Shown here: positions 2,330-53,977 of the stretch, piece after piece
Layout: every line of letters starts with the position of its first letter
Numbering within the stretch: position 1 is the stretch's first letter
Source of the DNA: an uncultured Chloroflexia bacterium
GTDB lineage: Bacteria; Chloroflexota; Dehalococcoidia; GIF9; UBA5629
Direction of reading: 5' to 3'
Assembly (NCBI GenBank): GCA_963754385.1
Contig: CAVWGE010000001.1
Location: 8,575-72,574, forward strand
DNA length: 64,000 nucleotides
Program-made: the position numbers and the translations under genes
The notes under the pieces: model-generated
Databases searched by the model: none
Told to the model about the DNA's origin: nothing
The model's input: only the letters and a program-made list of their open reading frames with translations

Positions 2330-2404
<75 letters not shown>

Positions 2405-2459: not shown

Positions 2460-2481
2460 TTTTGCTAATAATTTGCTAATA
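2460..2481 (+). repeat. 22-bp arm-type repeat (ttttgctaataatttgctaata) inside the island, next to attL
   Basis: Identical 22-mer at 24607..24628. It is itself a tandem of tttgctaata and is a candidate integrase arm-binding site. Confidence 0.6.
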
Positions 2482-16605: not shown

Positions 16606-17931
16606 ATGAAAAAGCTGTTTCTAATACTATTAGCAATTGCAACGGTGATTGGTTTGACTTCCGGTGCTTGTAAGTCAGAACCGGCAGTCAAAAAGGAGAT
16701 TCTTGTGGGCTACACTGCGTCGTTAACAGGCGCCTTTGCTGGTTTCGGCGTAGGCCACACATTTGGAGCGCAAGCGGCGATCGATGACATTAATGCACAA
16801 GGAGGAGTATATGTAAAGGAGTACGGACGTAAATTGCCCATCAAATTGATCGTCCGCGATACCGAGAGTGACCCATTAAAGGTAGCGACTCTTGCCGAAC
16901 AGCTGGCTACCCTCGACAATATAGATTTTTTTATAACAGGTAATGAACCACCGGCAATGCACGTCGGCGTAGCCAATGCAGCTGCGCGATATAAAATCCC
17001 ACATATCGGTCGCGTCGCTGTAATGGAACCATGGCTTGAAATGCGGGCAGGTGCTACGCCACCTTGGGAATACACTTGGGCTACTGGTTTTTCAATAGCT
17101 GCCGGGGCCCAGGAAGGGGATTTCCGGTATCAGGTGCCAGGATATACCATACTGTCTATCTGGTTACCGGCGATACAGGGAGTAGCCGATAAAACTAACA
17201 AAACAGTGGGTATATTCGGCTCAGATGATCCTGACGGCAGAGGTTGGTACATGCTGTCCCCCACAGTGTTAGAGGCGAGTGGTTTTACTGTTAGCGGGAT
17301 AGATAAAAAAATAGGGCTGTACACTATTGGAACTACGGATTTCTCATCAATAGTTAATAAGTGGAAAGAAGATCATGTAGAAATACTTTGGGGTAATTGC
17401 ATTGGACCTGACTTGGGAATAATATTGAGACAGGCTCAAGCGCTGGGGTTTCAGCCTAAGATGGTTCTCTGTGGCCGAGCACCCTGCAATTATGTAGATG
17501 TAACTGCTTGGGGTGGTGACCTACCATTAGGCATCTGTGTGGAAAGCAATTGGAGCCCTGAATATCATAGTCCTGGTATTGGTGATACCACACCACAATC
17601 CTTGGCAGCAAGGTGGTCCGATGAGACGGGGCAACCAATTAACTTCAATGTAGGGCTGGGATACTATCCAATCCAGGTCTTGGTTGACGCTATCGAGAGG
17701 GCAGGAACACTTGATGCCAATGCAATCAATAATGCCATAGCGAAAACTGACCTCATGACACTGAACTGGCGTGTGAAGTTTGACAAAAATCAATTCAGTA
17801 TAGACCCGCTAAACCTTGGACAATGGCAAAAGATTGATGCACCAGAGCAATGGGAAATGAAGATAGTCGCTTCCCCGCATGAATTCATAAGGCCCAACGC
17901 TGATCTAATATTTCCTATTCCGTACAAGTAA
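16606..17931 (+). CDS. ABC transporter substrate-binding lipoprotein (LivK / Peripla_BP_6 type)
   Basis: 441 aa. Signal peptide plus lipobox (LTSGAC). Branched-chain/aromatic-acid binding-protein fold features. Confidence 0.7.
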   Translation: MKKLFLILLAIATVIGLTSGACKSEPAVKKEILVGYTASLTGAFAGFGVGHTFGAQAAIDDINAQGGVYVKEYGRKLPIKLIVRDTESDPLKVATLAEQLATLDNIDFFITGNEPPAMHVGVANAAARYKIPHIGRVAVMEPWLEMRAGATPPWEYTWATGFSIAAGAQEGDFRYQVPGYTILSIWLPAIQGVADKTNKTVGIFGSDDPDGRGWYMLSPTVLEASGFTVSGIDKKIGLYTIGTTDFSSIVNKWKEDHVEILWGNCIGPDLGIILRQAQALGFQPKMVLCGRAPCNYVDVTAWGGDLPLGICVESNWSPEYHSPGIGDTTPQSLAARWSDETGQPINFNVGLGYYPIQVLVDAIERAGTLDANAINNAIAKTDLMTLNWRVKFDKNQFSIDPLNLGQWQKIDAPEQWEMKIVASPHEFIRPNADLIFPIPYK

Positions 17932-18045
17932 TAAGGTGGATTAAGTAGCTGTCAGGGGAGCTTAAGACGATACATCTTAAGCTCCCCTGACGCTAGATAG
18001 GCTGAAGGATTTTCTACACGAGTTTAATATTGACTGGAAAAAGTT

Positions 18046-24606: not shown

Positions 24607-24628
24607 TTTTGCTAATAATTTGCTAATA
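24607..24628 (+). repeat. Second copy of the 22-bp arm-type repeat, ~120 bp inside attR
   Basis: Identical to 2460..2481. Confidence 0.6.
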
Positions 24629-24746
24629 GACTGAATAAAACGGGTTGTTACCAAAAGATATTCTACGTATAAAATGGTTTTTAGGGAATTAACACAAAGG
24701 TTTCAAATTGAACGTAAAATGACGGTTTGGTATGATAGACGCCAGA

Positions 24747-24791
24747 CTCATAACCCGAAGGTCGTTGGTTCAAATCCAACCCCCGCTACCA
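24747..24791 (+). repeat. attR core: 45-bp direct repeat of the tRNA-fMet 3' half
   Basis: Exact copy of 2360..2404. It is not preceded by a tRNA 5' half. Confidence 0.85.
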
Positions 24792-24856
24792 GCCAAAGCG
24801 GCCGTCTCGGGAAAGTAGGCTCGAAGTCCTGGGGCGGCTTTTCTTTTTGCCCGAGG

Positions 24857-24890
24857 GAGGTCGTTGCTTCAAATCTAACCCCCACTACCA
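24857..24890 (+). repeat. Degenerate second copy of the tRNA 3' end (gaggtcgttgcttcaaatctaacccccactacca), a fossil att site
   Basis: About 85% identical to the tRNA T-arm and acceptor 3' strand, 65 bp downstream of attR. Confidence 0.55.
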
Positions 24891-25023
24891 AATATCAACT
24901 ATCATACAAGTAACCTTCAACTAAACTATTCCCTATATTGTCGCTGCATCCTCTATCCAGGCGATTCGCCAGAGTAGCTTCGATAGCATACCCATCTCCC
25001 AAATCTACTTATGAGACTAGATA

Positions 25024-26046
25024 CTAGCTTAATCTTTGAGTAAGCTCATCTACAGTCAGGAATTTCCTGGTGGTCTCTACTTGATGAACCAGTTCAACCA
25101 TCAGAGAATTAGCCGGTGTTGGAACGCCCATCTTCTTTCCTAAGTTCACGATTTCCCCATTCAAATAATCAACTTCCGTGCTTTTCCCTCTCTTGATGCT
25201 CTGTAATGTGGAACCTAGAATTGGTTGTTTACCTAAAGACTTGGCTTTATCCTTTACCATAGACGAGGAGATTGACAACGGCACTCTAGCCATTGTTTTC
25301 AGTGGTTCTAGTGGGAAGCCAGGTACGTCCACTGTTTTGATTCCAGCGCTTTCGATGACCTTTAGACTTTCTTTCGTCAGTTTGATGACCAGCTTTCGAA
25401 TCTGTGGGGACTGATAACTTTCTTGATACGATAAGCCTGTCACTCCTGGTATAGCAGTTTGCAGATTCCAGAGAAGCTTGGTCCAGTGCGCCGCACGAAT
25501 GTCCTCACTTATATCCGTAGCTATTGCTTTATTAAGCAATGCCGAGAGACTTTGTAATCGGTTGCCTTTGTTGCCAAAGGGTTCTCCTATCAGAAGGGCT
25601 GTTTTGCTGAATGGGATAGAGTATGATGCTTTACCTGGTTCAAGGAATTGACCATTAAATATAACAACGCCGCTGATGATATTTTCTTTTCCCAAAAGCC
25701 CGGCTACCTGGTCATCGCTCTGAACCCCGTTTTGCATGGTGACTACCTGAGTGCCAGATAGAAATACCTGCACTTTCCTGACTGAAGATACGACGTCCTG
25801 TGCCTTTACAGTTAGCAAGGCTAAATCCGGTTTGAAATCAAGATTTTCCGCAGCTTTAACCTGAATTACTATTTCCCCAGATTCTCCATCAAGGATTAAC
25901 CCGTTCTGGTTTATTGTATCAACATGAGTTTTCCGACCTATCAGAGTGACATCTTCTCCAGCCTTAGATAAAAGTCCACCAATTACACTTCCAATAGCCC
26001 CTGCACCAATAACAGCTATTTTCATAATAGTGTCTCCCTTCCCCAA
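25024..26046 (-). CDS. panE: 2-dehydropantoate 2-reductase (ketopantoate reductase, ApbA/PanE family)
   Basis: 340 aa. N-terminal Rossmann 'MKIAVIGAGAIGSVIGGLL' and the KPR C-terminal domain. Confidence 0.7.
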   Translation of the reverse strand: MGKGDTIMKIAVIGAGAIGSVIGGLLSKAGEDVTLIGRKTHVDTINQNGLILDGESGEIVIQVKAAENLDFKPDLALLTVKAQDVVSSVRKVQVFLSGTQVVTMQNGVQSDDQVAGLLGKENIISGVVIFNGQFLEPGKASYSIPFSKTALLIGEPFGNKGNRLQSLSALLNKAIATDISEDIRAAHWTKLLWNLQTAIPGVTGLSYQESYQSPQIRKLVIKLTKESLKVIESAGIKTVDVPGFPLEPLKTMARVPLSISSSMVKDKAKSLGKQPILGSTLQSIKRGKSTEVDYLNGEIVNLGKKMGVPTPANSLMVELVHQVETTRKFLTVDELTQRLS

Positions 26047-26156
26047 CTTGCTAAAAAATTGAGGACTTCCTGCATATTGGGGCTTAAGTTTAGGCCGCTA
26101 CCAGAAAGTTGTCAATCGCCTAAAAGTAGGTGAATCCCCCTTCCGTGAGTACGCCG

Positions 26157-26198
26157 CAGGCCTCGCGGGGGCCCCGGCGGCCGCGGCGGCGGGCCGTG
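26157..26198 (+). repeat. GC-rich core module of a multicopy mosaic repeat (copy a)
   Basis: 'gcctcgcgggggcyccggcggccgcggcggcgggccgtg'. The same core occurs at 28366..28420 and 32269..32322, with a diverged copy at 49636..49690. Confidence 0.6.
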
Positions 26199-26265
26199 AA
26201 GTGGTCGCCTGAAGGCGAGAGTCTCACACGAAAAACCTCCCCCTTTCGGGTTGCAATTCCCAACT

Positions 26266-26487
26266 CTATTTCTTGTTTTCCAATAAGGTTCGTATCGTCA
26301 TTACCTCATGACAGGTTATAATGAGTACAACCACAAGGGCCAACAGGAACCACATGATAGGCGTGAAACCACCAAACGTTGCGTTTAAAGCTGCGGTAAC
26401 AATGCCGACAATCAGCAAGACAACCGCCAGATAACGAGGAATATAGTGCCCTATTGGTCGCTTCCTTGATGCCAATTGATTCTTCAT
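26266..26487 (-). CDS. Small two-TM membrane protein (hypothetical)
   Basis: 73 aa with two hydrophobic helices. It has a good RBS and is driven by the duplicated promoter/leader module. Confidence 0.4.
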   Translation of the reverse strand: MKNQLASRKRPIGHYIPRYLAVVLLIVGIVTAALNATFGGFTPIMWFLLALVVVLIITCHEVMTIRTLLENKK

Positions 26488-26493
26488 GGTTAT

Positions 26494-26574
26494 ACCTCCT
26501 CACATTGTTTATGACTGTACCATATTATAACGCGTTGCTGCTGCGATGCAATGAGGCTCGGAACTCCGACCTGT
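26494..26574 (-). promoter_or_regulatory. Duplicated promoter/leader module, copy 1 (TTGCAT-N16-TATAAT, leader, GGAGG)
   Basis: An ~82-bp near-identical copy lies at 50689..50770. Both sit directly upstream of different small minus-strand ORFs. Confidence 0.55.
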
Positions 26575-26804
26575 CCAGGAACTGCACCACCGTGCGAATC
26601 AGGGCTGCCGCGGGTGCGGCCTCCCGTGTGGTTTACCCCCCAAGCTACCAAGAAAGATGCAGTCCCTCGGTCTCAGGGCCGCGTTTTTTCTTTACTTTAG
26701 GTAGCAGGCATTCCTTAATTGTTGTAGCCATAATGAGACAAAAGTTGCATACAATGACTTCGGTTTGGGCTAGAATGATTATAAATCATAAAGGGAGGTA
26801 AATC

Positions 26805-27155
26805 ATGAATAAGAGTCTTAAGATAGGCATTATCGTCGGCGGTATTGTCCTTGCCATCCTGATAGTAGTGCCCCTGCTCTGGGGAAGTATTTTGGGATGG
26901 CAGGGAAGAGGCTGGGGTATGATGGGACCGGGAATGATGGGCGGATTTGGTTTCGGCTGGTTTATGCCCGTACTCATGATTCTCTTTTGGGGGCTTGTCA
27001 TCTGGGGTGTGGTTGCTCTGGTTCGAGGCCTAAGTGGGCCGAAGCACTATGACTCCTCTGAGGCGGATTCTGCCTTGGAGATACTCAAGAGGCGGTATGC
27101 CCGGGGCGAGGTAAACAAAAAGGAATATGAGGAGAAGAAAAGAGAACTGACCTAA
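26805..27155 (+). CDS. SHOCT-domain membrane protein
   Basis: 116 aa with two TM helices and a Gly/Met-rich loop. The C-terminal 'ALEILKRRYARGEVNKKEYEEKKREL' is the SHOCT motif. Confidence 0.6.
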   Translation: MNKSLKIGIIVGGIVLAILIVVPLLWGSILGWQGRGWGMMGPGMMGGFGFGWFMPVLMILFWGLVIWGVVALVRGLSGPKHYDSSEADSALEILKRRYARGEVNKKEYEEKKRELT

Positions 27156-27170
27156 ATGGTTTATGCCCTA

Positions 27171-27228
27171 CTCATATTTGCAGGTATAGCCTGAAGGTCG
27201 GTGGTTTCAAATCCAACCACCGCTACCA
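27171..27228 (+). repeat. Degenerate att/tRNA-3'-like fragment (ctcata..cctgaaggtcggtggtttcaaatccaaccaccgctacca)
   Basis: Resembles the 45-nt att core with a 13-nt insertion and a few substitutions. Confidence 0.5.
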
Positions 27229-27243
27229 AGAAAGACACGGGCC

Positions 27244-27290
27244 CTCGGTCTCAGTGCTGAGGGCTTTTTCTTTTGCGACCGAGCTATCCC
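27244..27290 (+). terminator. Rho-independent terminator module of the mosaic repeat (gccctcgg..ctgagggc + TTTTTCTTTT)
   Basis: GC stem plus T-run. Variants of the same module occur at 24800..24850, 26650..26690, 49536..49575 and 36790..36826. Confidence 0.55.
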
Positions 27291-27441
27291 TGCCGCTCCC
27301 GTGGCCCACCAGGACCAGCCCCCTTCTACCAACGAGCGCCGTAGGCCTGCCAACCATCTGCCAAAATCTCTGTCAACATCATTGATTTTTACCTACTTTG
27401 AGGGTACACTAAGGTTATGAATTATATTAAAGGAGGGCAAA

Positions 27442-28209
27442 ATGGATCGTGTCAAAGGTAAAGTAGCCATCATAACCGGTGGGGCTAGCGGAATGGGTAG
27501 GGCGGAAGCATCATTATTAGCCAAGGAGGGAGCCAAGGTTGTCGTTGCCGACATCGACGAGGTCAACGGGAAGAAGGTCGCTGAAGAAATAGGACGTGAG
27601 GGTGGGAAGGCCATTTTTGTAAAACACGATGTCACCAGCGAAAGCGATTGGAGCGGGCTAATTAAGAAGACTTTGTCTGAGTTTGGGAAGCTAGACGTTC
27701 TGGTGAATAATGCCGGCGTCCTCTTTGCCAAACCGATTGAAGACACCTCATTAGAAGAGTGGCGCTGGCTTATGAGTGTCAATTTGGACGGTGTTTTCCT
27801 GGGCACGAAATACGCCATAGGAGCCATGAAGAAGAGTGGCGGCGGCTCAATTATTAATATATCCTCCTTTGCCGGTACCGTCGGCACCATTGATGATACG
27901 GCGGCGTATTGTGCCAGCAAGGGTGGCGTAAGGCTATTTAGCAAGGCGGCTGCCCTTGAGTGCTCCAAAGCAGGCCATAACTATAACATCCGTGTCAACT
28001 CAGTTCATCCTGGCGTTATCGAAACACCACTGAACGAGCCCCTGCGCAAGGTGGAAGCTATAAAGCAAAGCATGATAGCCAGGCACCCGATTGGGCATCT
28101 GGGTCAACCGATAGACATTGCTTATGCCATCCTTTATCTGGCGTCCGACGAGTCTAAATTTGCCACTGGTTCTGAGATGGCAGTCGATGGGGGCTGGACA
28201 GCGCAATAA
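27442..28209 (+). CDS. Short-chain dehydrogenase/reductase (SDR family, FabG-like)
   Basis: 255 aa. TGGASGMG cofactor motif, NNAG, and the S-Y..K catalytic triad (YCASK). Confidence 0.8.
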   Translation: MDRVKGKVAIITGGASGMGRAEASLLAKEGAKVVVADIDEVNGKKVAEEIGREGGKAIFVKHDVTSESDWSGLIKKTLSEFGKLDVLVNNAGVLFAKPIEDTSLEEWRWLMSVNLDGVFLGTKYAIGAMKKSGGGSIINISSFAGTVGTIDDTAAYCASKGGVRLFSKAAALECSKAGHNYNIRVNSVHPGVIETPLNEPLRKVEAIKQSMIARHPIGHLGQPIDIAYAILYLASDESKFATGSEMAVDGGWTAQ

Positions 28210-28247
28210 GGTAAATCGGTAACACCCTGGATATAGCGCGGATTTTT

Positions 28248-28318
28248 TAGGTGTCACCTGCCCACAGGTGACCAGAGTAGGTGACTCAAGTAACAGTCAC
28301 CCGAAGGCGGGTGACACG
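28248..28318 (+). promoter_or_regulatory. Cluster of GGTGAC/GTCACC inverted repeats (candidate operator)
   Basis: 'aggtgtcacctg-ccca-caggtgacc', then 'ggtgac-N10-gtcacc', then 'gggtgacacgtagg'. The last element recurs at 50793..50812. Confidence 0.35.
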
Positions 28319-28320
28319 TA

Positions 28321-28500
28321 GGAAGCTCCCGTGGCCCACCAGAACCAGCCCCCTTCTCCCCACGGGTGCCGTAGGCCTCGCGGGGGCTCCGGCGGCCTCG
28401 GTGACGGGCCGTGGGGTTTCCTGAATACCGCCTGTTATTTCTTGCCGGCCGTCCTCTGGAACAGCCGGATGGTCCTGAGGGTGTCGTCCGCGAAGTAAGC
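28321..28500 (+). repeat. Mosaic repeat copy b (GC-rich core plus the YFADDTL coding-like tail on the minus strand)
   Basis: Its 5' 55 bp duplicate 27300..27352, so the SDR gene is bracketed by direct repeats. It shares ~75-90% identity with 32269..32395 and 33773..33880. Confidence 0.6.
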
Positions 28501-28513
28501 CTTATGGGACTGT

Positions 28514-29884
28514 CTAATGTGCGACGGGCAGTGTGAAAGAGAAGCGGCTACCCTTCCCTTCTTCACTCTGTACTTTAATCCTACCCCCGTGTGCTTCCAC
28601 CAGGCTCTTGGCAATAGCAAGCCCCAGGCCTGCACCGCCAGTTGCTCTGGCTCGAGACTTGTCCACCCTGTAGAAGCGCTCAAACACATTCGGCAGGTCC
28701 TTAGCTGGAATGCCCTCTCCGGTATCTTTTACGCTTATCTCCAGCCAATTATCAAGCTTCGTGGCAGCTATGGTTATGATACCCCCTTTTGTTGTGTGGG
28801 TTATGGCATTATCTATGAGGTTGAGCAAGACCTGGCTAATCCGAAGGGTGTCAACGTTCACCAGCGGCAGCTTTTTGGGTAAATCAACGGATAATGATAC
28901 CCCTTTTGCCGTTGCCTGAGTTTGCCTCACAGCTACTGTTTGTTTCAATAACTTGATGATATCTTCCATCTGGTAATCCAACTTTAGCTCGCTTGCCTCA
29001 GCCAGGCTCAACTCCTGGAGATCGTCAACCAATCGTGATAGCAGGTTTGCTTCCTCATCAAGGGAGCAGATGGTATCTGATTCTGGTTTTACCATGCCAT
29101 CAGCTATTGCCTCCAAATAACCCTTGAGATTAGATAATGGAGTCCTCAACTCGTGGGCAATGTCAGCTATCATATTGCGGCGGAGTTGTTCATTTCGCTC
29201 CAGGCTTTCTGCCATAGAATTAAAGGCTCGGGCTAGTTCTCCGACCTCACCCTTCTCCTTAGAGTGCACACGCTGAGACAAATCTCCCTGGCCCAACTTC
29301 CTGGCGGCGAGAGTAAGAGCCTTGACTGGCGCTGAAATTCGGCGCGACAGGAAATAGGTTATTAGGAAGGCAACGGCAGCCGCCAGTAGCGCACCCCAGA
29401 GAAGAAAACGACTTATTGCCTGGGAGAGACTCAGCGGTGAAGGGAAAACCGCCGATGATTCGGGGCTGATATATAGAACCCCCACACTGTCTCCTTCCCA
29501 CGGTGGTGGGAAGCGCATACCCGGTGTATCAGGAAGGTATTGCTGCCCCAATAACTCTCCTTGGGAATCTGCGACTACTACCCCGCTAGAGTCTGTCAGT
29601 ATAATTCGTCGCTCATAGAGGCTCCCCCACTGCTTCACATAGGGTTGAATTCCCTCCCAGTCTCCATGCTCGTTGTAATAGCGGTTCAGCTCGAGTGCCA
29701 CTCTTCCAAAGCGTGCTTGCTCGCTTCGTTCGCCAAACCGGCCGATTTCAACCACGGCAGTATGACTGACAAATAAATATATTGCACCAACTGCAACCAC
29801 TATGATGAGGGCGAAGGCCATTAGGAGGCGAAATCGCAAACTATATATCACTTTGAACCCCTGAGAACTTGTAGCCAGATCCAT
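28514..29884 (-). CDS. Sensor histidine kinase (TM, HAMP, HisKA, HATPase_c)
   Basis: 456 aa. H-box '[12 protein letters not shown]', N/G1/G2 boxes and two TM segments. Confidence 0.8.
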
Positions 29885-30536
29885 ATGCTGTCTTTATATA
29901 CTTGGGGTGTCTGGAGTCTGTCTCCAGTTTCCGGCGCAGATTTAGGATATGGACATCAATGGTGCGGTCAAAGCCCTTATAATCATAGCCCAAGGCTTTT
30001 TCAACAAGCTCTGTCCGGCTGAAAACCCTACCCGGTTCCTTGACGAGAACTCCTAGCAGCTTAAATTCAACAGGCGTAAGATTTAGATGTCTACCGGCAA
30101 TGGACGCCTCCTGCTTAAGGAAATTCAGGACAAGTTCGCCACGCTTAATCTCTGCAGGGCCACGCTCTCCCGGCAGTCGTCTGAGCACAGCCCGGACTCT
30201 GGCTGCCAGCTCTCTCGGGCTGAATGGCTTAGACACATAATCGTCCGCTCCTAGACCTAAACCAGTCAGCTTGTCCTCGTCCGTAGTTCTAGCAGTGAGC
30301 ATAACTATTGGTACGTCAGATTCATCTCTAAGGGTACGGCAGACTTCAAAACCATCCATGCCCGGTAACATTAGGTCCAGGACAATAAGATCAGGGTGAC
30401 TCTCACGAGCCAAACGCAGTGCCTCGGTGCCATCGTAAGCGGTCAGAACCCTGTAGCCATCCCGGTTCAGATATAGCTTGACCAGCTCCACTGTCTTTAC
30501 ATCATCATCAACTACCAGGACCTTTTTACCGGCCAT
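29841..30536 (-). CDS. OmpR-family response regulator
   Basis: 231 aa. Receiver (DD..D..K) plus a winged-helix trans_reg_C domain. Confidence 0.85.
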
Positions 30537-30717
30537 GCTTGCTCTCTTGAGTATACAACCTTCTCTATAATGTTATAACACGAATGTTAAGGAATTGTTA
30601 AGTCCCAGTCCATTTTAAGTGCTCATTACCTACTTTATAATAATTAGAGAGGGAGAGAAACGCTCTCCCTCTCTCTTGATGTGGTCAGACAAGTCCCCGT
30701 AATCGAACTTTGGTCAG

Positions 30718-31131
30718 CTATTCTGATGGGGGTGGGGCACACGGTCCACCCATACCAGCGAACCCGCCATGACCGCGGAAGCCAAATCCAGATGGCATAT
30801 CAGGCCTTGATTGCCACCAGTTTAGGTACTTGTCAGCCTGGTCCTGGGTTATCTTGCCCTGCTTTACCAAGCCTTGAAGGTTGGCTTGCTCCGACTCTTT
30901 CTGCAGCTCGCTTCGGGCCTGAGTGAAGGCATCTGTGAGCGCTTGTTGGTCAATGGCGACACCTGTCTTTTGCTGGTAGATTGTACAGACTTTTGCCAAT
31001 AGGTCCGTACCTAGAGCCTTGGGCTGAGTGTTGTCCCCATTGCTGGCAGCAAGTGCTACCCCGCTGATGCTTCCGGCTAGCAGCACAGCCGCTGATACCG
31101 CAATGATAATGAATTTCTTGCTTCGCCACAT
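30718..31131 (-). CDS. Secreted protein with a signal peptide (YckD/DUF2680-like)
   Basis: 137 aa. Signal peptide, then a Q/A-rich helical region with 'QDQADKYLNWWQSRP'. Confidence 0.4.
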   Translation of the reverse strand: MWRSKKFIIIAVSAAVLLAGSISGVALAASNGDNTQPKALGTDLLAKVCTIYQQKTGVAIDQQALTDAFTQARSELQKESEQANLQGLVKQGKITQDQADKYLNWWQSRPDMPSGFGFRGHGGFAGMGGPCAPPPSE

Positions 31132-31220
31132 TTCTGTCTCACCTCCTTTCTTTTAAGGTTAATATAAGCATAGCATCTGGATATTAAAATCTTATTAAGA
31201 TTTCGTTCGGTAACGAGTAC

Positions 31221-31550
31221 TTATTCTGCGTTGCATTTAATGCATTTGTCGAAGAGGTCTGCCAGTAGTTTGGAAATCTCGGTACGTATTGGTGTTACAG
31301 TACCACCATTGCCATATACATATTGCTGCTGGTTTTGATTCGGATTTCTAGTCAGTGGTGCTTGATTGTAAGGTGGCTGACTATACTGTGGCCATTGCTG
31401 GTCAGGATACTGATAATTGTACGACAGAAGTGGTGGCTGAGGCGATATTTGTTGTATTACACAGATTAAGTTAATACCGCAATTGCCACAAAACCTAGCA
31501 CCATACGCAATTTGTGCCCCGCAACTAGGGCAGAAATGCATTTGCCACAT
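31221..31550 (-). CDS. Zinc-ribbon protein with a Q/P/Y-rich low-complexity region
   Basis: 109 aa. N-terminal CPSCG..CGNCG zinc ribbon followed by a Q/P/Y/N-rich segment. Confidence 0.4.
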   Translation of the reverse strand: MWQMHFCPSCGAQIAYGARFCGNCGINLICVIQQISPQPPLLSYNYQYPDQQWPQYSQPPYNQAPLTRNPNQNQQQYVYGNGGTVTPIRTEISKLLADLFDKCIKCNAE

Positions 31551-31677
31551 CAGTGTTAACCCCTTCTCACAGTAATTAGTCCACGACTTTGTTCAAATGG
31601 GACTTGAAAATTTTCAAATGCTCTGCCTCTTTAGAGTGATTAGTCTATTCGCTCTTGTTGGCAGGTGATACGGTTTC

Positions 31678-32028
31678 CTACTTTAATTGTCTTCCCAAAT
31701 TCATCATTTGGTTCCAGTCCAAGCTACCCAGTTCGTCAATGTATTCCTGTGTTTGCTGATCAGAAAGGGCATAGGTGATAAGGTCACCATTATTGTGTTG
31801 GGCTGAAAGAATACCTTTTGCAACCAAGTTTGCGAGTGCATCTCTTAAGCTAAGCGCTGAAGTATCCAGGGCTCTAGCGATGGTGTACAAGCTTAATTTT
31901 ACCTTAGGATGTCTTCCCCAGAAGCAGAGTAACTTGAATTGCATACTGGTGCAATTGATATCCTTCAGAAATGGCAGCAGGTCGTAATGAGCTGTTCTCC
32001 TTATCCCACAATCGATCATCATGCCCAT
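31678..32028 (-). CDS. Hypothetical winged-helix protein
   Basis: 116-aa ORF. Weak MarR-like HTH (LYTIARALDTSALSLRDALANLVAKG). Confidence 0.3.
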   Translation of the reverse strand: MGMMIDCGIRRTAHYDLLPFLKDINCTSMQFKLLCFWGRHPKVKLSLYTIARALDTSALSLRDALANLVAKGILSAQHNNGDLITYALSDQQTQEYIDELGSLDWNQMMNLGRQLK

Positions 32029-32268
32029 TTTCTCCTATTTCACTACTTTTTATCTTGATTGCATTCGCCAAGATATTTTTATGATATCAATAGAATATTA
32101 ATTTCTGATTAAGATTTTGAACTGAGAATTGTGCTCTATTTGTTAAACGAGTGATATGACGGTAGGTTTACAGATGTGTGTATACATAAATAATCGGAAG
32201 GGCAATTCCTATTGGCGCTCCCATAGCTCACCAGAGCTGGCCCCGAAACCGCCGCGCGAGTACTGTGT

Positions 32269-32395
32269 AAGCCTCGCGGGGGCTCCGGCGGCCGCCGCGG
32301 CGGGCCGTGGGGTTTCCCGAATGTCGCCGATTACTTACTGCCGCCCGACCCCTGTAGCAGTTGGACGGTCAGGGTGTCGTCCGCGAAGTAGGTCC
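32269..32395 (+). repeat. Mosaic repeat copy c (GC-rich core plus YFADDTL tail)
   Basis: See 28321..28500. The minus-strand ORF 32331..32558 ends '...RTYFADDTLTVQLLQGSGGSK'. Confidence 0.6.
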
Positions 32396-32635
32396 TGCTG
32401 TTGCGGCAGGTGCCGGCGATGGCCCTCAGTATGTCGCGGAAGTTCCACAGCTCGACGCCGTCCTCCTTGGCCTTCTTCAGGGCGTCCTCTTCCCACCCCC
32501 ACGTATCATAGGCATCAATTACATCATTTTGATGCCTGTGACTCAACCGCACAACCACTCTTGTTGTGTGGTCCCGCTATAAAATAGAACCTTGCCTTCG
32601 TTCAGTTTTCGATAAGCAGTGGCTTTCCTAGGTAA

Positions 32636-33028
32636 CTAGCTACCTTTTTTTGCCGCCTTGTAGGGATACAGGCCCAGGAAAAGCGCGGCGAAGACGGCAT
32701 TAAAGATAAGTGGCATTCCCTCCTGGCTGAAGGTAACGATACCCCGCATGATTGAGTACGCGCCCATGACTACAATCAGAATAGCCACCGTTATGGCAAA
32801 CTGTACCCACATAATGTGCTTCAGCGGGTTCCGTGCCGCGACTATGACAAAGGCACCAGCCGTAATATAGCAGATGCCAAGCAGCCCAAAAACGTATGCC
32901 ACCCAAGCAGGTGCTCCTGTCTCACCACCCATTTCACATAATTGGGTAGGGAAAAAGATGTACGCCAGACCTAACAAAATCGCTATCGCCGACCAAATGA
33001 TCATCACTACCTTTAGAGCTTTTATCAT
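32636..33028 (-). CDS. Small membrane protein (four TM)
   Basis: 130 aa, strongly hydrophobic. Confidence 0.4.
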   Translation of the reverse strand: MIKALKVVMIIWSAIAILLGLAYIFFPTQLCEMGGETGAPAWVAYVFGLLGICYITAGAFVIVAARNPLKHIMWVQFAITVAILIVVMGAYSIMRGIVTFSQEGMPLIFNAVFAALFLGLYPYKAAKKGS

Positions 33029-33081
33029 TTTTTTATCTCCTGTAATAAGATTTACTGTAAAAACTAACAGCTAGTTGCTGA

Positions 33082-33450
33082 TTAATAATACTGTGGTTGC
33101 TTGAATGCCTTGGTAGCCAGAGTCTCAATCAGGAACCCCCAAATGACTGGCAAGGCGAAAGCTATCCACGGTTGAAGAGGTCCTCCAACGTTGCCAATTG
33201 CCAGGAATATGCCGAAGAGAGCTCCCCACAACGCACCATGAGCCGCCCAATTCATTTTGAGCGAACTTGCCCCGATTGCAAACCCCAGGACAGTGTGGTG
33301 TAACAGAAAGGAGACACCGAGGGGCCAAAAGGGAATTTGTGAGCCATACCTGGACAATAACATGCATATAACGCCAAAGACGGCACCCAGTACTGTGGTT
33401 GTAACCAAGCGAGACGTTTTTGTCACTTTGCTACCCGATTTCATTCTCAA
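33082..33450 (-). CDS. Small membrane protein
   Basis: 122 aa, hydrophobic helices. Confidence 0.4.
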   Translation of the reverse strand: MRMKSGSKVTKTSRLVTTTVLGAVFGVICMLLSRYGSQIPFWPLGVSFLLHHTVLGFAIGASSLKMNWAAHGALWGALFGIFLAIGNVGGPLQPWIAFALPVIWGFLIETLATKAFKQPQYY

Positions 33451-33772
33451 CTCCTTCCATACGTTGGACTTAAGCTTACTCCTTAGTGACGCATGACTTT
33501 CCTTTAAATAGTTATGGGTTAGTATACAGGTATATTCTTCAAATAGGCGCTACCTTCTAACACTTCACGTTCAGGTGAACCAAATAAAAAGGGCACTGCA
33601 ACTGCAACCAAACGGCAATTCCAGTGCCCTCATTTCACATGCGCCTCCGTCAATCCGTCTTATTTGTAGACTAGACTGGAGTACAAAGGCGTCGCAAGTA
33701 TATGGCCTTCTCATTCCAATGTCAATACGTAGAATTACCTACTGTAATAATTAGTCCACCCTCCGGGATATG

Positions 33773-33880
33773 TGGCCTCCCGGACGTCGCCGATTACTTC
33801 CTGTCGCCTGACCTCTGTAGCAGCTGATGGTCCTGAGGGTGTCGTCCGCGAAGTAGGCTTTGCTGCCGCGGCGGGCTGGT
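33773..33880 (+). repeat. Mosaic repeat copy d (tail module only)
   Basis: 'gtcgccgattacttcctgtcgcctgacctctgtagcagctgatggtcctgagggtgtcgtccgcgaagtagg' matches copies b and c. Confidence 0.55.
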
Positions 33881-34084
33881 GAACGGCAGGCTGCAAAAGC
33901 TTACAAGGGCCCAGAAAGCTTACAACGAACTGGAGGGAAAGCTTGCGAAAAGCTTACGACGCCGCCCCTCGAGTTCAAAAAGCCCAGAAGCTGACCTGCT
34001 TTAACTATGAGGCGTTGTGAGAATAGCAACTCACCTAGGCAAGTTATATAATATATGGTCAAAATTGAAGTAGCAAAGGAATGA

Positions 34085-35728
<1,644 letters not shown>

Positions 35729-35868
35729 CCAATACGCAGCTGCATTTTGGAGCGTTCCCTCCTCTTCCCACAGGTAAGTTTGTAGATTCCGGAAAACTAT
35801 GGAAACCTTCTTGCAATTTAGAACATTGCTTGGTAAACTAAACAAAATGTTGTTTGGAGGGTTAGACC

Positions 35869-36864: not shown

Positions 36865-37479
36865 CTATTCCTCTGGCCCGGGTTCGAAAGAGGGTGAGGG
36901 AAAAGAAAGTGCTTCGGTTAAAAGATAACTTGCTTGTAGTGCCTCTGTAGGACAAAGTGGAAAGCATTCCTTGCAGTTCCAGCACTCCTTAGAGGCTATC
37001 TCCGGGATGAAACTTATCTCTCGTCTTGCTCCTCTGTCAACAAATCCAATAGCGTTCTTTTTCTTGACTTCAGCACAGTATCTGACACATAGACCACAAA
37101 GAATGCAAAATGAGGACTCTTTTTCAAAACGGCCTTTGTCTGCTCCATACTCTTGAGCCAAATCCTGCAATTCTACGGCATCCGGAGCATGAGCTAGCAT
37201 CAGCTCCAGAAGCACTTTGCGAGTTTTATCTATCTTCTCAGACCTGGTTCTTACTACCAAATTTTGTTCTACAGGGTAAAGGCAGGCAGCAACGAGATTT
37301 GTCCTACCGCGAGCTTCTATTTCTACTGTGCAAATTCGGCAAGCCCCATAAGGTTCTAATTTCTCGTGGTGACAAAGTGTAGGGATATTTATTCCTACAC
37401 TTTGTGCTGCCTCCAAAATGGTCATCCCTTCCCTGGCTTCAACTTCCCTTCCATCAATCTGTAAAATGATTTCACTCAT
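36865..37479 (-). CDS. [2Fe-2S]/[4Fe-4S] ferredoxin-like protein (NuoG / HndD N-terminal domain type)
   Basis: 204 aa. Plant-type 2Fe-2S fold (CHHEKLEPYGACRIC) followed by CxxCxxC..CP cluster motifs. Confidence 0.7.
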   Translation of the reverse strand: MSEIILQIDGREVEAREGMTILEAAQSVGINIPTLCHHEKLEPYGACRICTVEIEARGRTNLVAACLYPVEQNLVVRTRSEKIDKTRKVLLELMLAHAPDAVELQDLAQEYGADKGRFEKESSFCILCGLCVRYCAEVKKKNAIGFVDRGARREISFIPEIASKECWNCKECFPLCPTEALQASYLLTEALSFPSPSFEPGPEE

Positions 37480-37481
37480 CT

Positions 37482-39404
37482 TTATTTACTCTCTCTGGCT
37501 ATAATTCTTGCTTCTTCAGGGATAGGAGGCGGAACAGGCTCGCCAGAAATCTTCTTCGCCGCACCAAAGCGAGGGGGGCAAACTTCAAAGCAAGTTCCGC
37601 ACTTTGTGCATTTCTCCTGGTCAATTACATGGATCTGGTTCTTACCACCTACAATCGCCTCTGCAGGGCATTGCCTGAGACAAATCATGCAAGCCTGACA
37701 CTTCTCGGGGTCGATATAGTATGAGATTAGCGCCTTACACGCGTAAGCCGGACAACGCTTCTCCTTGATGTGTGCCTCATACTCATCTCTGAAGTAGCGT
37801 ATCGTGCTTAGAACCGGGTTGGGGGCAGACTTACCTAAAGCACAAAGTGAGGCATCTTTTGTTACCACGGATAGCTCCTCCAAAAGCTCGATGTCGCCCT
37901 CTCTCCCCTTTCCTTCACTAATATTAGTCAGAATCTTAAGCATCTGCCTGATGCCTTCACGGCAGGGGACGCATTTGCCACACGATTCATCAGCGAGGAA
38001 GTTAAGAAAGTACCTGGCGACATCAATCATACAGGTATCTTCATCCATTACAATCATGCCACCTGAACCCATCATTGAGCCAGCCTTGGCGAGCTCATCA
38101 AAATCGACTTTCATGTCTAACTGTTCCTCAGGGATACATCCTCCGGATGGACCCCCGGTCTGCACTGCTTTGAATCTCTTGCCTCCAGGGATACCACCGC
38201 CTACCTTATAGATAATATCTTTCAGGGTTATGCCCATGGGTACTTCCACAAGGCCGGTATTGTTTATCTTACCTACCAAGGAGAAAATCTTCGTGCCCTT
38301 GCTGCCTTCAGTTCCAAATTGAGTAAACCAGTCAGCGCCTTTATTGATAATAAGCGGCACATTAGCCCAAGTCTCAACATTATTCAAGCAGCTGGGTCTA
38401 TCCCAAATGCCCTTAACGGCGGTGTGGATATACTTCGGTCTGGGCTCTCCTACCTTGCCTTCTATTGCCGTCATCAGAGCGCTCGATTCACCAGAGACGA
38501 AAGCGCCGGCTCCTCGGTGCACTTTAATAGTGAAATCAAAACCTGAGCCAAGGATATTTTCTCCAAGGAGACCATGCTCCTCGGCCTGCTTGATAGCAAT
38601 ACCCACGTTCTCTACTGCCAGGGGATATTCCTGCCGAACGTAAATATAACCCTCATGGGAGCCGATGGCATAGGCTCCCATGGTCAACCCCTCAAGAACT
38701 GAATGAGGGTTCCCCTCGAGAAGGGCTCTATCCATAAATGCCCCTGGGTCACCCTCGTCGGCGTTGACTATCACATACTTTATTTCGTCAGGGGCATTGC
38801 GACATTCCTCCCATTTCTTGCCGGCAGGAAAGCCACCGCCTCCCCTCCCTCTCAGGTTGGATTTTTTGACTTCCTCCAATACTTGCTCGGAGGTCATCTG
38901 GGAAAGAACTTTGGCTAAAGCAGAATAACCACCTAGCGCCAGATAATCATCGATACTTTTAGGATCAATCTTAATGTTATTGCCGATAAGGAGCCGCATC
39001 TGGTTCTTGTAAAAAGGTATTTCATACTCATGTACTGCTTTTTCGCCAGTATTTGGGTCAGTATAAAGCAGGCGGTCAATCACTTTTTTCCCAACTACAG
39101 TCTGAGAGACAATTTCTGGGGCGTCCTCCGGTGTTACCCCTATATAACAGATTTCTTCGGGATAGATAACGACTAGAGGTCCTTTTTCACAAAAGCCGGG
39201 GCAACCGGTTCCTCTAACGTCAACCTTGGTCTTTAAAGCTTGTTTTTCGATTTCTTCTTCAAAGGCACTGATAACCCTGTCACTGCCGAGAGCGAGACAG
39301 CCGGTTCCAGCACATATCGTAATACAGGGTTTGTTTTGGTCTCTTTTGGACAATATTTCTTGCCTGAGTTCTTCCAATTCAGTAGGCGAATTTATCTTTG
39401 GCAT
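37482..39404 (-). CDS. NuoF/HndC-like NAD(P)H-binding flavoprotein with an N-terminal thioredoxin-like 2Fe-2S domain and C-terminal 2x[4Fe-4S]
   Basis: 640 aa. FMN/NADH-binding 51-kDa-subunit motifs (GRGGGGFPAGKKWE; ..NADEGDPGAF..), the SLBB 4Fe-4S site, and C-terminal CxxCxxCxxxCP x2. Confidence 0.8.
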   Translation of the reverse strand: MPKINSPTELEELRQEILSKRDQNKPCITICAGTGCLALGSDRVISAFEEEIEKQALKTKVDVRGTGCPGFCEKGPLVVIYPEEICYIGVTPEDAPEIVSQTVVGKKVIDRLLYTDPNTGEKAVHEYEIPFYKNQMRLLIGNNIKIDPKSIDDYLALGGYSALAKVLSQMTSEQVLEEVKKSNLRGRGGGGFPAGKKWEECRNAPDEIKYVIVNADEGDPGAFMDRALLEGNPHSVLEGLTMGAYAIGSHEGYIYVRQEYPLAVENVGIAIKQAEEHGLLGENILGSGFDFTIKVHRGAGAFVSGESSALMTAIEGKVGEPRPKYIHTAVKGIWDRPSCLNNVETWANVPLIINKGADWFTQFGTEGSKGTKIFSLVGKINNTGLVEVPMGITLKDIIYKVGGGIPGGKRFKAVQTGGPSGGCIPEEQLDMKVDFDELAKAGSMMGSGGMIVMDEDTCMIDVARYFLNFLADESCGKCVPCREGIRQMLKILTNISEGKGREGDIELLEELSVVTKDASLCALGKSAPNPVLSTIRYFRDEYEAHIKEKRCPAYACKALISYYIDPEKCQACMICLRQCPAEAIVGGKNQIHVIDQEKCTKCGTCFEVCPPRFGAAKKISGEPVPPPIPEEARIIARESK

Positions 39405-49526: not shown

Positions 49527-49700
49527 TTAGAGAGCCCTCGGGCTCAGTGCTGGGGCTTTCTCTTTTGCGACTAGGCTATTCCCCTCGCTCACGTGGCTCA
49601 CTAGAACCAACCTCTTTCTCCTCATGAGTGCCACAGAGGCCTCGCGGGGATTCCGGTGGCCTTCGTGGTTGATCCTGGGGCTTCCTTAACCCTTGCCGCT
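49527..49700 (+). repeat. Mosaic repeat copy g (terminator module plus diverged GC-rich core)
   Basis: 'agagccctcgggctcagtgctggggctttctcttttgcgac...gaggcctcgcggggattccggtggcc'. Confidence 0.5.
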
Positions 49701-49759
49701 GCCTTTTATCCGCCCCGAAGTGATAGTACTGTACTGACGGCTTTTATAACAGCCCGATA

Positions 49760-50400: not shown

Positions 50401-50691
50401 CTATAAATCGGTTTTTCCCTGGCGTTCCAGTTCTAAAAGGATGCGGATTCCGTAGTAGAAACACTCTTTTAAATATATTTCCTCCCAATCACGAAGAGTA
50501 ACGATATCACCCCAACTGCCACCGCGAAGTGCTTCTGCAACCTTTTCATGCCTTTTCTGCCGCGATATAGCAGTACGCTCACTAAACGCCCTTGTTATGT
50601 TGGCACCTTGCGCTTTTACCAGAAAATACCCCTCCAGCGGGCTGGCACCTGCCGCCTCGAATAGTTCTGCCTTCCTTGCCATGAGATACAC
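50401..50691 (-). CDS. Hypothetical 96-aa protein driven by promoter/leader copy 2
   Basis: ORF with a GGAGG RBS. No confident family assignment. Confidence 0.35.
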   Translation of the reverse strand: MYLMARKAELFEAAGASPLEGYFLVKAQGANITRAFSERTAISRQKRHEKVAEALRGGSWGDIVTLRDWEEIYLKECFYYGIRILLELERQGKTDL

Positions 50692-50770
50692 CTCCTCACA
50701 TTGTTTATGACCTTACCATATTATAACGCGTTGCTGCTGCGATACAATAAGGCGTAGAACTCCGACCTGC
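50689..50770 (-). promoter_or_regulatory. Duplicated promoter/leader module, copy 2
   Basis: About 82 bp with ~6 mismatches relative to 26494..26574. It contains -35, -10 and an RBS. Confidence 0.55.
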
Positions 50771-51050
50771 TCTCAGACGACTCGAGTAACGTTCGCCCGA
50801 AGGCAGGTGACACGTAGGGGAGCGATTTGGATATTAGAAAGCCTCTAGTTGTTGAATGTCAATACTTGAGCAAAAGTTTCGGCCGGAAAGCCGTCATTTG
50901 CAAAGGGGAGAGTTTTGGTGTATAGTAGGAGTAGTGGTTTCAGTTTAGGTTATCACGTACTTAGTTAAATTACCTTGGATTTGTGCAATTTATCCAAGCT
51001 CCGGATGACCACAACTCTAGCCAACTATTTATAAGAGAGGAGGTCGTCCA

Positions 51051-53344: not shown

Positions 53345-53977
53345 TTATTCGCAATCCAGCTTAAAGCCGCCGTTACAGGAAAGCTTTGAGCAAGCATCTG
53401 CCACTGTGGGGTCGTAGAGGATGCCTCTATTCTGCATGATTTCATCTAATGCCTTTGCCTCTCCCAGAGATGGCCGGTAAGGTCGGTGGGAGGCCATAGA
53501 TTCAATAACGTCAGCCACACACAGAATCCTGGCTTCTAAAATTATAGCCTCGCCGGAAATGCCTTTAGGATAACCGGAGCCATTTAACCTCTCATGGTGC
53601 TGCAGTACAGTTTCAGCCACCGGCCAGGGGAAATCCAGATTTCGCAGTATATCATAAGCTACCTGAGGATGAGTTTTAACGATGCTGAACTCGTCGGCAC
53701 TTAACTTGCCTGGTTTACTGAGAATGTCGCCGGGCACAGCTATTTTACCGATGTCATGGACTTCACCTGTTATGCGGATACCGCAAATCTGCTCGTCGGA
53801 AAGGTTCATCTCCCTGGCGATAGCACAGGCAAGCTGAGCTACTCGGCGCTGGTGACCAGCAGTATAAGGGTCCCTCTTTTCATGTAAGGCAGCGATAGCC
53901 TCGACTGTTCTGTTAATTACCTTCAGTAGACCTTCGAGTTTTTGTTCACTCAAGATTTTTCGCCTCCTTGAGGACAC
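53345..53977 (-). CDS. HD-GYP domain phosphohydrolase
   Basis: 210 aa. 'HHERLNGSGYP' and 'HDIGK' motifs. Confidence 0.75.
   Translation of the reverse strand: MSSRRRKILSEQKLEGLLKVINRTVEAIAALHEKRDPYTAGHQRRVAQLACAIAREMNLSDEQICGIRITGEVHDIGKIAVPGDILSKPGKLSADEFSIVKTHPQVAYDILRNLDFPWPVAETVLQHHERLNGSGYPKGISGEAIILEARILCVADVIESMASHRPYRPSLGEAKALDEIMQNRGILYDPTVADACSKLSCNGGFKLDCE

Follow-up and report, generated by a model that had tools for sequence, protein, structure and literature searches.

What are the GC-rich repeats and broken tRNA ends that lie beyond a genomic island of an uncultured Chloroflexota bacterium, and how did they come to stand beside its tRNA-Met gene? The stretch in question (64 kb of contig CAVWGE010000001.1, positions 8,575 to 72,574; hereafter the window) starts within a 23S rRNA gene, of which it includes the 3′ 2.26 kb; next comes tRNA-Met(CAT), whose last 45 nt harbor a tyrosine-integrase island; beyond this island there are at least three older displaced tRNA 3′ ends, most of them with a terminator, and copies of a GC-rich non-coding block. 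Its RpoD and further proteins assign the organism to uncultured Chloroflexota, the named relatives being MAGs labelled ‘Chloroflexi’ and ‘Dehalococcoidia bacterium’. We name the recurring modules, all on the + strand, T (tRNA 3′ end), Term (terminator hairpin), A, core and tail; the tail corresponds, by its translation, to the 3′ terminus of a degraded gene on the minus strand, which we call X. We consider it likely that core and tail are leftover ends of mobile elements, piled up by serial integration or accretion beside tRNA-Met. The order tRNA end, terminator, A, core, X(-) recurs, whole or in part, in two close relatives and two more distantly related genomes as well as within the window, and the locus displays the features by which accreted arrays are recognized, namely co-oriented partial tRNA copies, fragments of an element gene (three C-termini of X) and a content that varies between relatives.

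The island currently resident in tRNA-Met is a textbook tRNA-targeting tyrosine-integrase island: it shows an intact target tRNA, a displaced repeat of the tRNA 3′ end, an internal tyrosine recombinase and a syntenic relative that is free of the island (L062; labels L060-L088 denote the contigs and loci from metagenomes and metagenome-assembled genomes, MAGs, that were compared with the window). Self-blastn delimits the identity segment at the left attachment site (attL) as the last 45 nt of tRNA-Met (2360-2404). The recombinase matches XerA/XerC/XerD-type models (E = 2e-22) under their equivalog cut-offs, as expected for a phage-type integrase. The hairpin that follows the right attachment site (attR) folds at -24.2 kcal/mol and is followed by UUUUCUUUUU. 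The junction of island and integrase (tRNA end, hairpin, TTTTTGCTAATAATTTGCTAATAATG, integrase) is shared with L067.

A 25-nt tRNA-end pattern has four matches in the window at ≤3 mismatches, against 0.00 expected, and the distal partial copies at 24747, 24858, 26644 (a stub), 27186 and possibly 26096 (an additional stub, CCGCTACCAGAAAG at 26096-26109, identified by eye) are all on the + strand. The first-pass annotation of this DNA had recognized decayed tRNA 3′ ends near 24857-24890 and 27171-27228 and a ‘ctaccaag’ stub at about 26640; self-blastn recovers the former two at 24858-24891 (91% identity) and 27186-27229 (89%, to 2363-2405 of the tRNA end), and the stub lies at 26644-26651. This stub is continuous with its terminator, 26644-26693 being 81% identical to 27222-27273 (self-blastn). 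A hairpin plus U-run is found after the tRNA itself, attR, the 26644 stub, the 27186 relic and the fdhD gene. The accompanying claim that such a module follows each relic holds for attR, the 26644 stub and the 27186 relic and fails for 24858-24891, after which the sequence folds at 0 kcal/mol.

Module A spans ~75 nt, starts with CTATCCC…GCTCCCGTGGCYCACCAGAACCAGCCCCC… and stands upstream of every core and once, at 27275-27348, without one: in this copy (27186-27348) the homology stops exactly where the core would start (…GTAGGCCT). The core itself (GCCTCGCGGGGGCYCCGGCGGCC…GGGCCGTGGGG) is captured by the pattern GCCTCGCGGGGNNNCCGGYGGCC, with matches at 26160, 28375, 32271 and 49639 (c1 to c4; Table 1), all on the + strand and against 0.01 expected in the window; the four GC-rich cores reported at first pass are thereby confirmed to within a few bases. 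The repeats are thus far above chance, and the self-comparison adds module A and an orphan tail (t5) to the family. The 19-nt center of the tail, GGGTGTCGTCCGCGAAGTA, has three matches (28479, 32372 and 33837) against 0 expected. The ~90-bp tail once thought to be shared by the cores does follow c2 and c3, with DNA homology at c3 extending to about 32519, while c1 has no X tail and a different 3′ flank that diverges after CCTGAA, and c4 retains only the decayed start of a tail. Translated from the minus strand, the tails read …YFADDTLRTIQLLQ… and end in a stop.

Across ten aligned copies of the joined A and core modules (A-core), the 11-mer GCCTCGCGGGG is invariant in all ten. Copies differ by indels whose lengths are not multiples of three, so A-core is non-coding; for this reason, and since its conservation lacks codon periodicity, a coding alternative was rejected. 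The patches of 64-79% GC that it forms in a window of 47% GC probably reflect the GC-richness of the X lineage, the sublineage concerned having 55-60% GC overall and 75-82% at third codon positions (GC3) within loci of 47-50% GC. The c4 copy at 49.6 kb is not part of the tRNA relic array and lacks any tRNA fragment; relative to c2 it shows 20 GC>AT versus 4 AT>GC transitions, with its GC content shifted toward the host value, and it is conserved in the relative L060. We therefore take c4 to be an old relic that is ameliorating to host GC. Unrelated genes separate the copies, i.e., those for a PanE-like reductase, a 73-aa membrane protein, a SHOCT protein, an SDR, a histidine kinase with a response regulator, a zinc-ribbon protein, a winged-helix protein and two membrane proteins. 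These cargo genes are on both strands with their own promoters, and there is no integrase gene among the genes at 24.8-34 kb.

Table 1. Coordinates, within the window, of the tRNA-Met gene, the resident island, the tRNA relics and the repeat modules.
Feature	Position	Strand	Composition and evidence
Intact tRNA-Met(CAT)	2330-2404	+	directly after 23S rRNA; ARAGORN, Rfam tRNA (67.4 bits), self-blastn
22-kb island	2405-24746		exact 45-bp direct repeat at both ends
Tyrosine recombinase gene	2476-3654	-	adjoins tRNA-Met, inside the island; integrase homology, E = 2e-22
attR, hairpin and U-run	24747-24852	+	attR 24747-24791, 45/45 identical to tRNA end; hairpin module 24792-24852
Decayed tRNA 3′ end	24858-24891	+	corresponds to ~2372-2405, 91% over 34 nt (self-blastn); no terminator after it
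c1	26096-26205	+	possible stub CCGCTACCAGAAAG, partial A, core 26160-26198; nhmmer E = 8.6e-16 over 26114-26205
tRNA-end stub and terminator copy	26637-26693	+	stub gctaccaag, with ‘ctaccaag’ at 26644-26651; terminator scan, fold, self-blastn
tRNA-end relic, terminator and module A	27186-27348	+	contiguous: relic 27186-27229, terminator 27230-27273, A 27275-27348; nhmmer E = 6.7e-9
Modules G and H	28245-28324	+	GGTGAC/GTCACC-rich hairpins after the SDR cargo gene
c2	28321-28512	+	A and core 28321-28434, then last 25 codons of X(-) 28438-28512; nhmmer E = 1.3e-29, tblastn with X homologues
c3	32204-32519	+	A and core 32204-32331, then last 58 codons of X(-) 32334-32504; nhmmer E = 2.4e-26, tblastn E = 2e-23
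t5, orphan tail	33764-33875	+	last few core bases, then last ~23 X codons with a frameshift (33797-33864, -); self-blastn, tblastn
c4	49534-49730	+	directly after fdhD: terminator, A, core, decayed tail start; nhmmer E = 2.1e-27

The same modules are found in other combinations in related genomes. A 42-nt family pattern that fits all four window cores retrieved three metagenome contigs of close relatives, with flanks 88-97% identical to those of the window. One of these, L062, has the order 23S, tRNA-Met, Term, 3.3 kb of cargo (genes for a membrane protein, a 274-aa protein, a DUF6602 protein and a 97-aa protein) and A-core-X′, without the 22-kb island. Another, L061, displays a PanE-like gene, module G and A-core-X′ joined directly to the sequence that corresponds to window position 35761 onward, which means that the MFS transporter gene is absent there. 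Both have flanks within the above identity range and differ from the window in their cargo and copy numbers. The more distant genomes L063 and L065 feature the same mixture: an intact X is accompanied by additional tails and cores and by tRNA ends that terminators follow. A 20-base core pattern run against contigs of species-representative genomes gave 59 single matches, all in high-GC genomes and none extending, which we dismissed as chance. In a separate observation, L062 1-142 aligns with window 53550-53691: a truncated X is joined there to part of an HD-domain gene with 87% identity to the gene at 53345-53977. The junction would leap over 25 kb, rpoD among them, and reflects either a rearrangement or a paralogous fragment in that genome, or a chimeric metagenome contig.

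In the window, X survives only as three C-terminal fragments of 58, 25 and ~23 codons, the last frameshifted (tblastn). The 59-aa fragment has no homologue in a word-indexed protein search, and tblastn against plasmids and phages gave chance-level matches only. L062 holds a longer, 115-aa version of the reading frame, and with this as query we recovered 212 homologues with E-values down to 5e-45; an exhaustive profile search then yielded 454 cluster representatives, mostly from Chloroflexota, with full-length members of ~176 aa. X has no sequence match in Pfam, PHROG or PDB. An AlphaFold (AF2) model built on 62 homologues (predicted local distance difference test, pLDDT, 89.4; predicted template modeling score, pTM, 0.85) has PD-(D/E)XK nucleases as its top Foldseek matches, namely AF1548, MspJI, EndoMS/NucS, Card1 and phage restriction endonucleases (among them 1y88, 4f0q, 5gke and 2vld; E = 2.5e-4 to 5e-3, template modeling (TM) scores about 0.4-0.45), with TM-scores of only 0.40-0.47 overall. 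Accordingly, X is predicted to be a nuclease-like protein with a PD-(D/E)XK-like core fold of the form alpha-beta-beta-beta-alpha-beta. It shares this predicted fold with nucleases of the AF1548/MspJI/NucS-EndoMS/Mrr type; the acidic residues E31, D33 and E51, in the first strands, are invariant in the family, as is H49. Unlike those nucleases, it shows only the above low TM-scores without a sequence match, bears a helical C-terminal half of its own and deviates at the canonical lysine: there is none two residues after E51, where H-I-E-S/C-G occupies the E-x-K position. The catalytic lysine of the predicted nuclease may be supplied from elsewhere. In L078 (4930-6525; also in L079-L081), an N6/N4 DNA methyltransferase gene is immediately followed, in the same orientation, by a distant X homologue, a pairing that resembles restriction-modification systems and fits a nuclease role for the family. 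We also considered whether the family representatives systematically include 3′-end relics, and rejected this because C- and N-terminal fragments are, by eye, about equally frequent, as expected from truncation at contig ends.

In the closest relatives (L063-L068 and L086), X is divergent from a gene encoding a 63-aa HTH_17 (excisionase/MerR-like) protein. It is followed in L067 and L068 by genes for ParB, a Prim-Pol, an AAA_25 helicase and a PolA-UDG protein, and in L065 by those for zinc-ribbon proteins; phage-type integrase genes are found 3-5 kb from X in L063, L065 and L067. In L065 and L066, an intact X is succeeded within ~20 nt by the core and then by module A. In L067, where X is only 66% identical, the A-core block is 165 nt downstream of X and still carries CCCCCGCGAGGC and TTCTGGTGAGCCACG. 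From these arrangements we conclude that A-core is a conserved non-coding downstream flank of X in the sublineage nearest to this genome. Among IMG/VR viral contigs, the core and the tail are each absent and X occurs at a single locus, which indicates that the X-bearing elements are not typical catalogued viruses. A further observation concerns L067, in which a 19-bp direct repeat with one mismatch (GAATTGGGGACCCTGTYCG; 2612-2630 and 17908-17926) encloses 15.3 kb containing the X-bearing element and a neighboring integrase island, with a T-arm-like fragment on the opposite strand at ~2495-2530. On sequence grounds, these repeats and the T-arm fragment are possible alternative attachment sites.

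Taken together, we posit that X-bearing integrative elements, or the locus that they occupy, would have the T-Term-A-core-X(-) block as their tRNA-proximal end. Such elements would supply a replacement tRNA end and terminator, and new arrivals at tRNA-Met would push older units outward. Deletions would then strip the element interiors, such that unrelated cargo (SDR, PanE-like, SHOCT and the two-component system) now lies between the leftover ends, and some relics might have been imported already decayed, as passenger DNA of neighboring islands (accretion). Selection in active elements most likely preserved the invariant 11-mer, as a site that a protein recognizes or at which a transcript ends rather than as a structured RNA. 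The first-pass annotation had anticipated serial integration and decay at this tRNA, and in this it is borne out by the hotspot with its decayed att copies, by the divergence among copies and by the island-free L062, with the exception of c4, which sits outside the array. Its picture of anonymous scars proximal to attR does not stand: the tail is, by its translation, the 3′ end of X, with core and A as the downstream flank of that gene, and the contiguous order of tRNA end, terminator, A, core and X(-) puts these pieces on the tRNA-proximal (attL) side and not the attR side.

Several observations weigh against attributing the blocks to element ends. Distant X homologues are found in settings that look non-mobile or resemble restriction-modification systems, beside an N6/N4 methyltransferase, a DUF3987 primase-helicase or VapBC. 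The core is absent downstream of six intact close X genes (L063, L064, L068 and L086-L088, the last three being short contigs with the closest intact X genes) and of all distant homologues surveyed. Conversely, A-core copies occur without X at c1, L063 1852-1941 and L063 8567-8663. In L067, the tRNA fragment is oppositely oriented to A-core-X, and X is internal rather than terminal. The loci examined yielded no intact X-bearing element for which both ends could be defined, and no integrase could be tied to X. Finally, breakpoints cluster at the edges of the core, which would equally fit the core being a recombination site.

This last point leads to the alternative, on balance unlikely, that A-core is itself an attachment or capture site, with X units and single-gene cargo recombining at or beside the core and each event duplicating A-core, while a different class of islands, which target the tRNA and use the same hotspot, left the tRNA relics. 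The A-only copy ends in …GGCCT (27348), t5 starts at the last bases of the core, and both c1 and the L063 copy at 8567 diverge just after the core. Such an origin would also account for the diverged A-core on the far side of the X-containing segment in L063 (1852-1941), for the different neighbors of the left end of A (CTATCCC) in L061, L062, at 27.2 kb and at c4, and for the invariance of the 11-mer. It is the core-edge breakpoints, the far-side copy in L063 and the varied neighbors of CTATCCC that keep this alternative alive. The SDR segment has a 54-bp piece of A on either side (27295-27348 and 28325-28378, 91% identical); however, the two differ at 5 of 54 positions and may thus be two separate relics. 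Moreover, the junctions are few, no recombinase is linked to A-core, and a mechanism acting at the core alone leaves unexplained the contiguity of tRNA end, terminator and A in two window copies and the multiplication of terminators. We hold a more specific form of this idea to be distinctly improbable, namely that A-core, by virtue of its invariant GCCTCGCGGGG, serves specifically for recombination or cleavage and is recognized by X, its HTH_17 partner or an integrase, constituting an integron- or homing-like cassette platform at a tRNA-Met hotspot of Dehalococcoidia-like Chloroflexota.

Local segmental duplication or unequal crossing-over of a single ancestral region downstream of tRNA-Met, without repeated foreign arrival, would produce co-oriented copies within 10 kb plus one 22 kb away, as is seen here. 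The window copies, however, are 76-82% identical to one another versus 86-91% to copies in other genomes (c2 to L062, 88%; c3 to L061, 91%; t5 to L061, 86%), and hence they are not recent local duplicates. Their truncation points and intervening genes differ, their GC content is foreign to the host, and relatives differ in copy number and arrangement, making this explanation very unlikely.

We likewise regard it as highly improbable that A-core encodes a structured non-coding RNA or acts in cis as an RNA regulator within the X transcript, a possibility raised by the conservation of a non-coding sequence with an invariant G-rich block. In most copies, a 10-12-bp hairpin (5′ CYYCC.YGRG … CUCGCGGGGG) can form on the + strand, and its variable positions change only between pair-compatible bases. 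These positions are uninformative, because a Y opposite G or an R opposite U stays paired on the + strand under any transition. There is no Rfam match for A-core at the gathering threshold or at E up to 5; the RNAalifold consensus is weak on both strands with covariation terms of ~0; and the hairpin plus a long-range helix proposed from c2 show no compensatory double changes, with 83.5% of cells paired versus 83.1% in column shuffles, although ten related copies afford these covariation tests limited power. Folding z-scores range from -2.5 to +1.0 with no consistent strand, and neither a promoter nor a terminator frames the A-core unit. The earlier suggestion that the core might be a structured RNA thus meets with no Rfam match, no compensatory changes and unremarkable folding energies. 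The core as a decayed piece of 5S RNA, tmRNA, SRP RNA or tRNA was also considered and discarded, with no support from Rfam. Lastly, a small repeat spreading on its own, like a miniature inverted-repeat transposable element or a repetitive extragenic palindrome, would suit a short, GC-rich, multicopy, non-coding unit with some copies lacking X and the tRNA end (c1 and L063), yet it is extremely unlikely given the lack of terminal inverted repeats, target duplications and relevant inverted pairs, the common orientation of all copies at the same kind of locus, and the restriction of matches to three metagenome contigs, with no genuine one in species-representative genomes and none in viral contigs.

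Several further features of the locus were noted in the course of the analysis. An exact 22-bp repeat, TTTTGCTAATAATTTGCTAATA, comprising two tandem TTTGCTAATAA units, is found at 2460-2481 and 24607-24628, within the island at ~55 nt from its left end and ~120 nt from its right end; the sequence is also present in the distant MAG locus L067 (15040-15060), between the tRNA-Met fragment and the integrase. Their placement makes these repeats candidates for integrase arm-type binding sites. At 24724-24788, just inside attR, there is a weak full-length tRNA match (Rfam RF00005, 20.5 bits, E = 1.9), from which it follows that the island arm includes a degenerate 5′ half of a tRNA ahead of the exact 45-bp repeat. 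The 23S rRNA gene is followed by tRNA-Met, and the entire 64-kb window shows no 5S rRNA gene at Rfam gathering thresholds. Self-comparison also reveals near-perfect palindromes or hairpins at 17946-17995, 37372-37405, 38654-38682 and 30646-30674. A hairpin with a 12-bp stem (AGAGAGGGAGAG…CTCTCCCTCTCT), 5′ of the response-regulator/kinase operon and just past the stop of a 137-aa gene (30718-31131, -), is probably the terminator of that gene.

Some non-coding modules recur outside the A-core family. Inverted-repeat modules rich in GGTGAC/GTCACC (e.g., GGTGTCACCTGcccaCAGGTGACC and GTCACCCGAAGGCGGGTGAC) follow various cargo genes: module G recurs after a different cargo gene in L061 (2115-2155), and H at 50779-50818 and in L062 (2821-2851). 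None has a U-run after it on either strand, so these are not canonical terminators. An 83-nt module is 90% identical between 26491-26573 and 50687-50769 and is also present at L060 1616-1697; on the minus strand it displays a TTGCAT-N16-TATAAT promoter-like site, a leader and GAGGAGG ahead of an ATG. The genes downstream of its two window copies, for a 73-aa membrane protein and for a protein of 96 aa, are unrelated. The module seems to be a portable promoter and 5′ untranslated region. All four window occurrences of AAAGCTTRC fall within 62 nt (33896-33957), directly to the right of the orphan X tail, in an iteron-like cluster, against 1.3 expected window-wide.

Read as leftover element ends, the locus represents a well-documented and fairly ordinary mode of island growth at a tRNA, a phenomenon known from Dehalococcoides ssrA islands and marine tycheposons. 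Its value lies in the relics of an uncultured Chloroflexota lineage being readable module by module, and in the definition of an unannotated family of ~176-aa proteins with a predicted nuclease fold, which in the nearest lineage are accompanied by HTH_17 beside element replication genes. The X family and the conserved non-coding block of one sublineage offer practical markers to find and delimit such elements in Chloroflexota MAGs. If the conserved block were indeed a recombination or nuclease target, it would expose cargo exchange at these hotspots.

Among known systems, integron cassette arrays are superficially similar in having single-gene cargo between recurring non-coding modules by a fixed site. 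An integron was nevertheless rejected: there is no IntI-type integrase beside the array (24.8-34 kb), the island integrase gives only weak generic matches to integron-integrase models, the recurring modules are not visibly attC-like (by inspection only), and the cargo is in both orientations with its own promoters. Tyrosine integrase, restored tRNA 3′ end and displaced far-end fragment are shared with Islander-type tDNA islands, of which tandem arrays are known (Hudson et al. 2015, PMC4383910); the current 22-kb island does not differ from these, whereas the older units are without integrases. In the tycheposon islands of Prochlorococcus, older units are displaced outward by newcomers; the islands are strewn with partial tRNAs and pieces of element genes and gather flanking DNA that stems from other hosts (Hackl et al., bioRxiv 10.1101/2020.12.28.424599). 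Relatives of X are likewise found beside primase-polymerase and helicase genes, a likeness at the level of Pfam families (Phage_integrase, Prim-Pol, AAA_25 and DNA_pol_A); in contrast to tycheposons, the host here is of an anaerobic-type Chloroflexota lineage, and the GC-rich non-coding block beside a terminal gene has no described tycheposon counterpart.

The ssrA-specific genomic islands (ssrA-GIs) of Dehalococcoides are tandem islands downstream of a single small-RNA gene, bounded by direct repeats of its 3′ end, and a conserved set of genes on the reverse strand adjoins attL; some units consist of cargo only, and accretion, deletion and amelioration have been invoked for old relics (McMurdie et al. 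2011, PMC3146451). The window shares with these the array architecture and, at the phylum level, the host group. It differs in that the target is tRNA-Met and not ssrA, the resident recombinase is a tyrosine integrase and not the serine recombinase DsiB, and the conserved gene on the attL side codes for a small protein with a predicted nuclease fold that is paired with HTH_17; the relics are also much more decayed, and there is no reductive dehalogenase cargo. In its architecture the locus is thus a tRNA/tmRNA island array, distinguished by its tRNA-Met target, the type of its recombinase, the pairing of a nuclease-fold protein with HTH_17 and the GC-rich flank.

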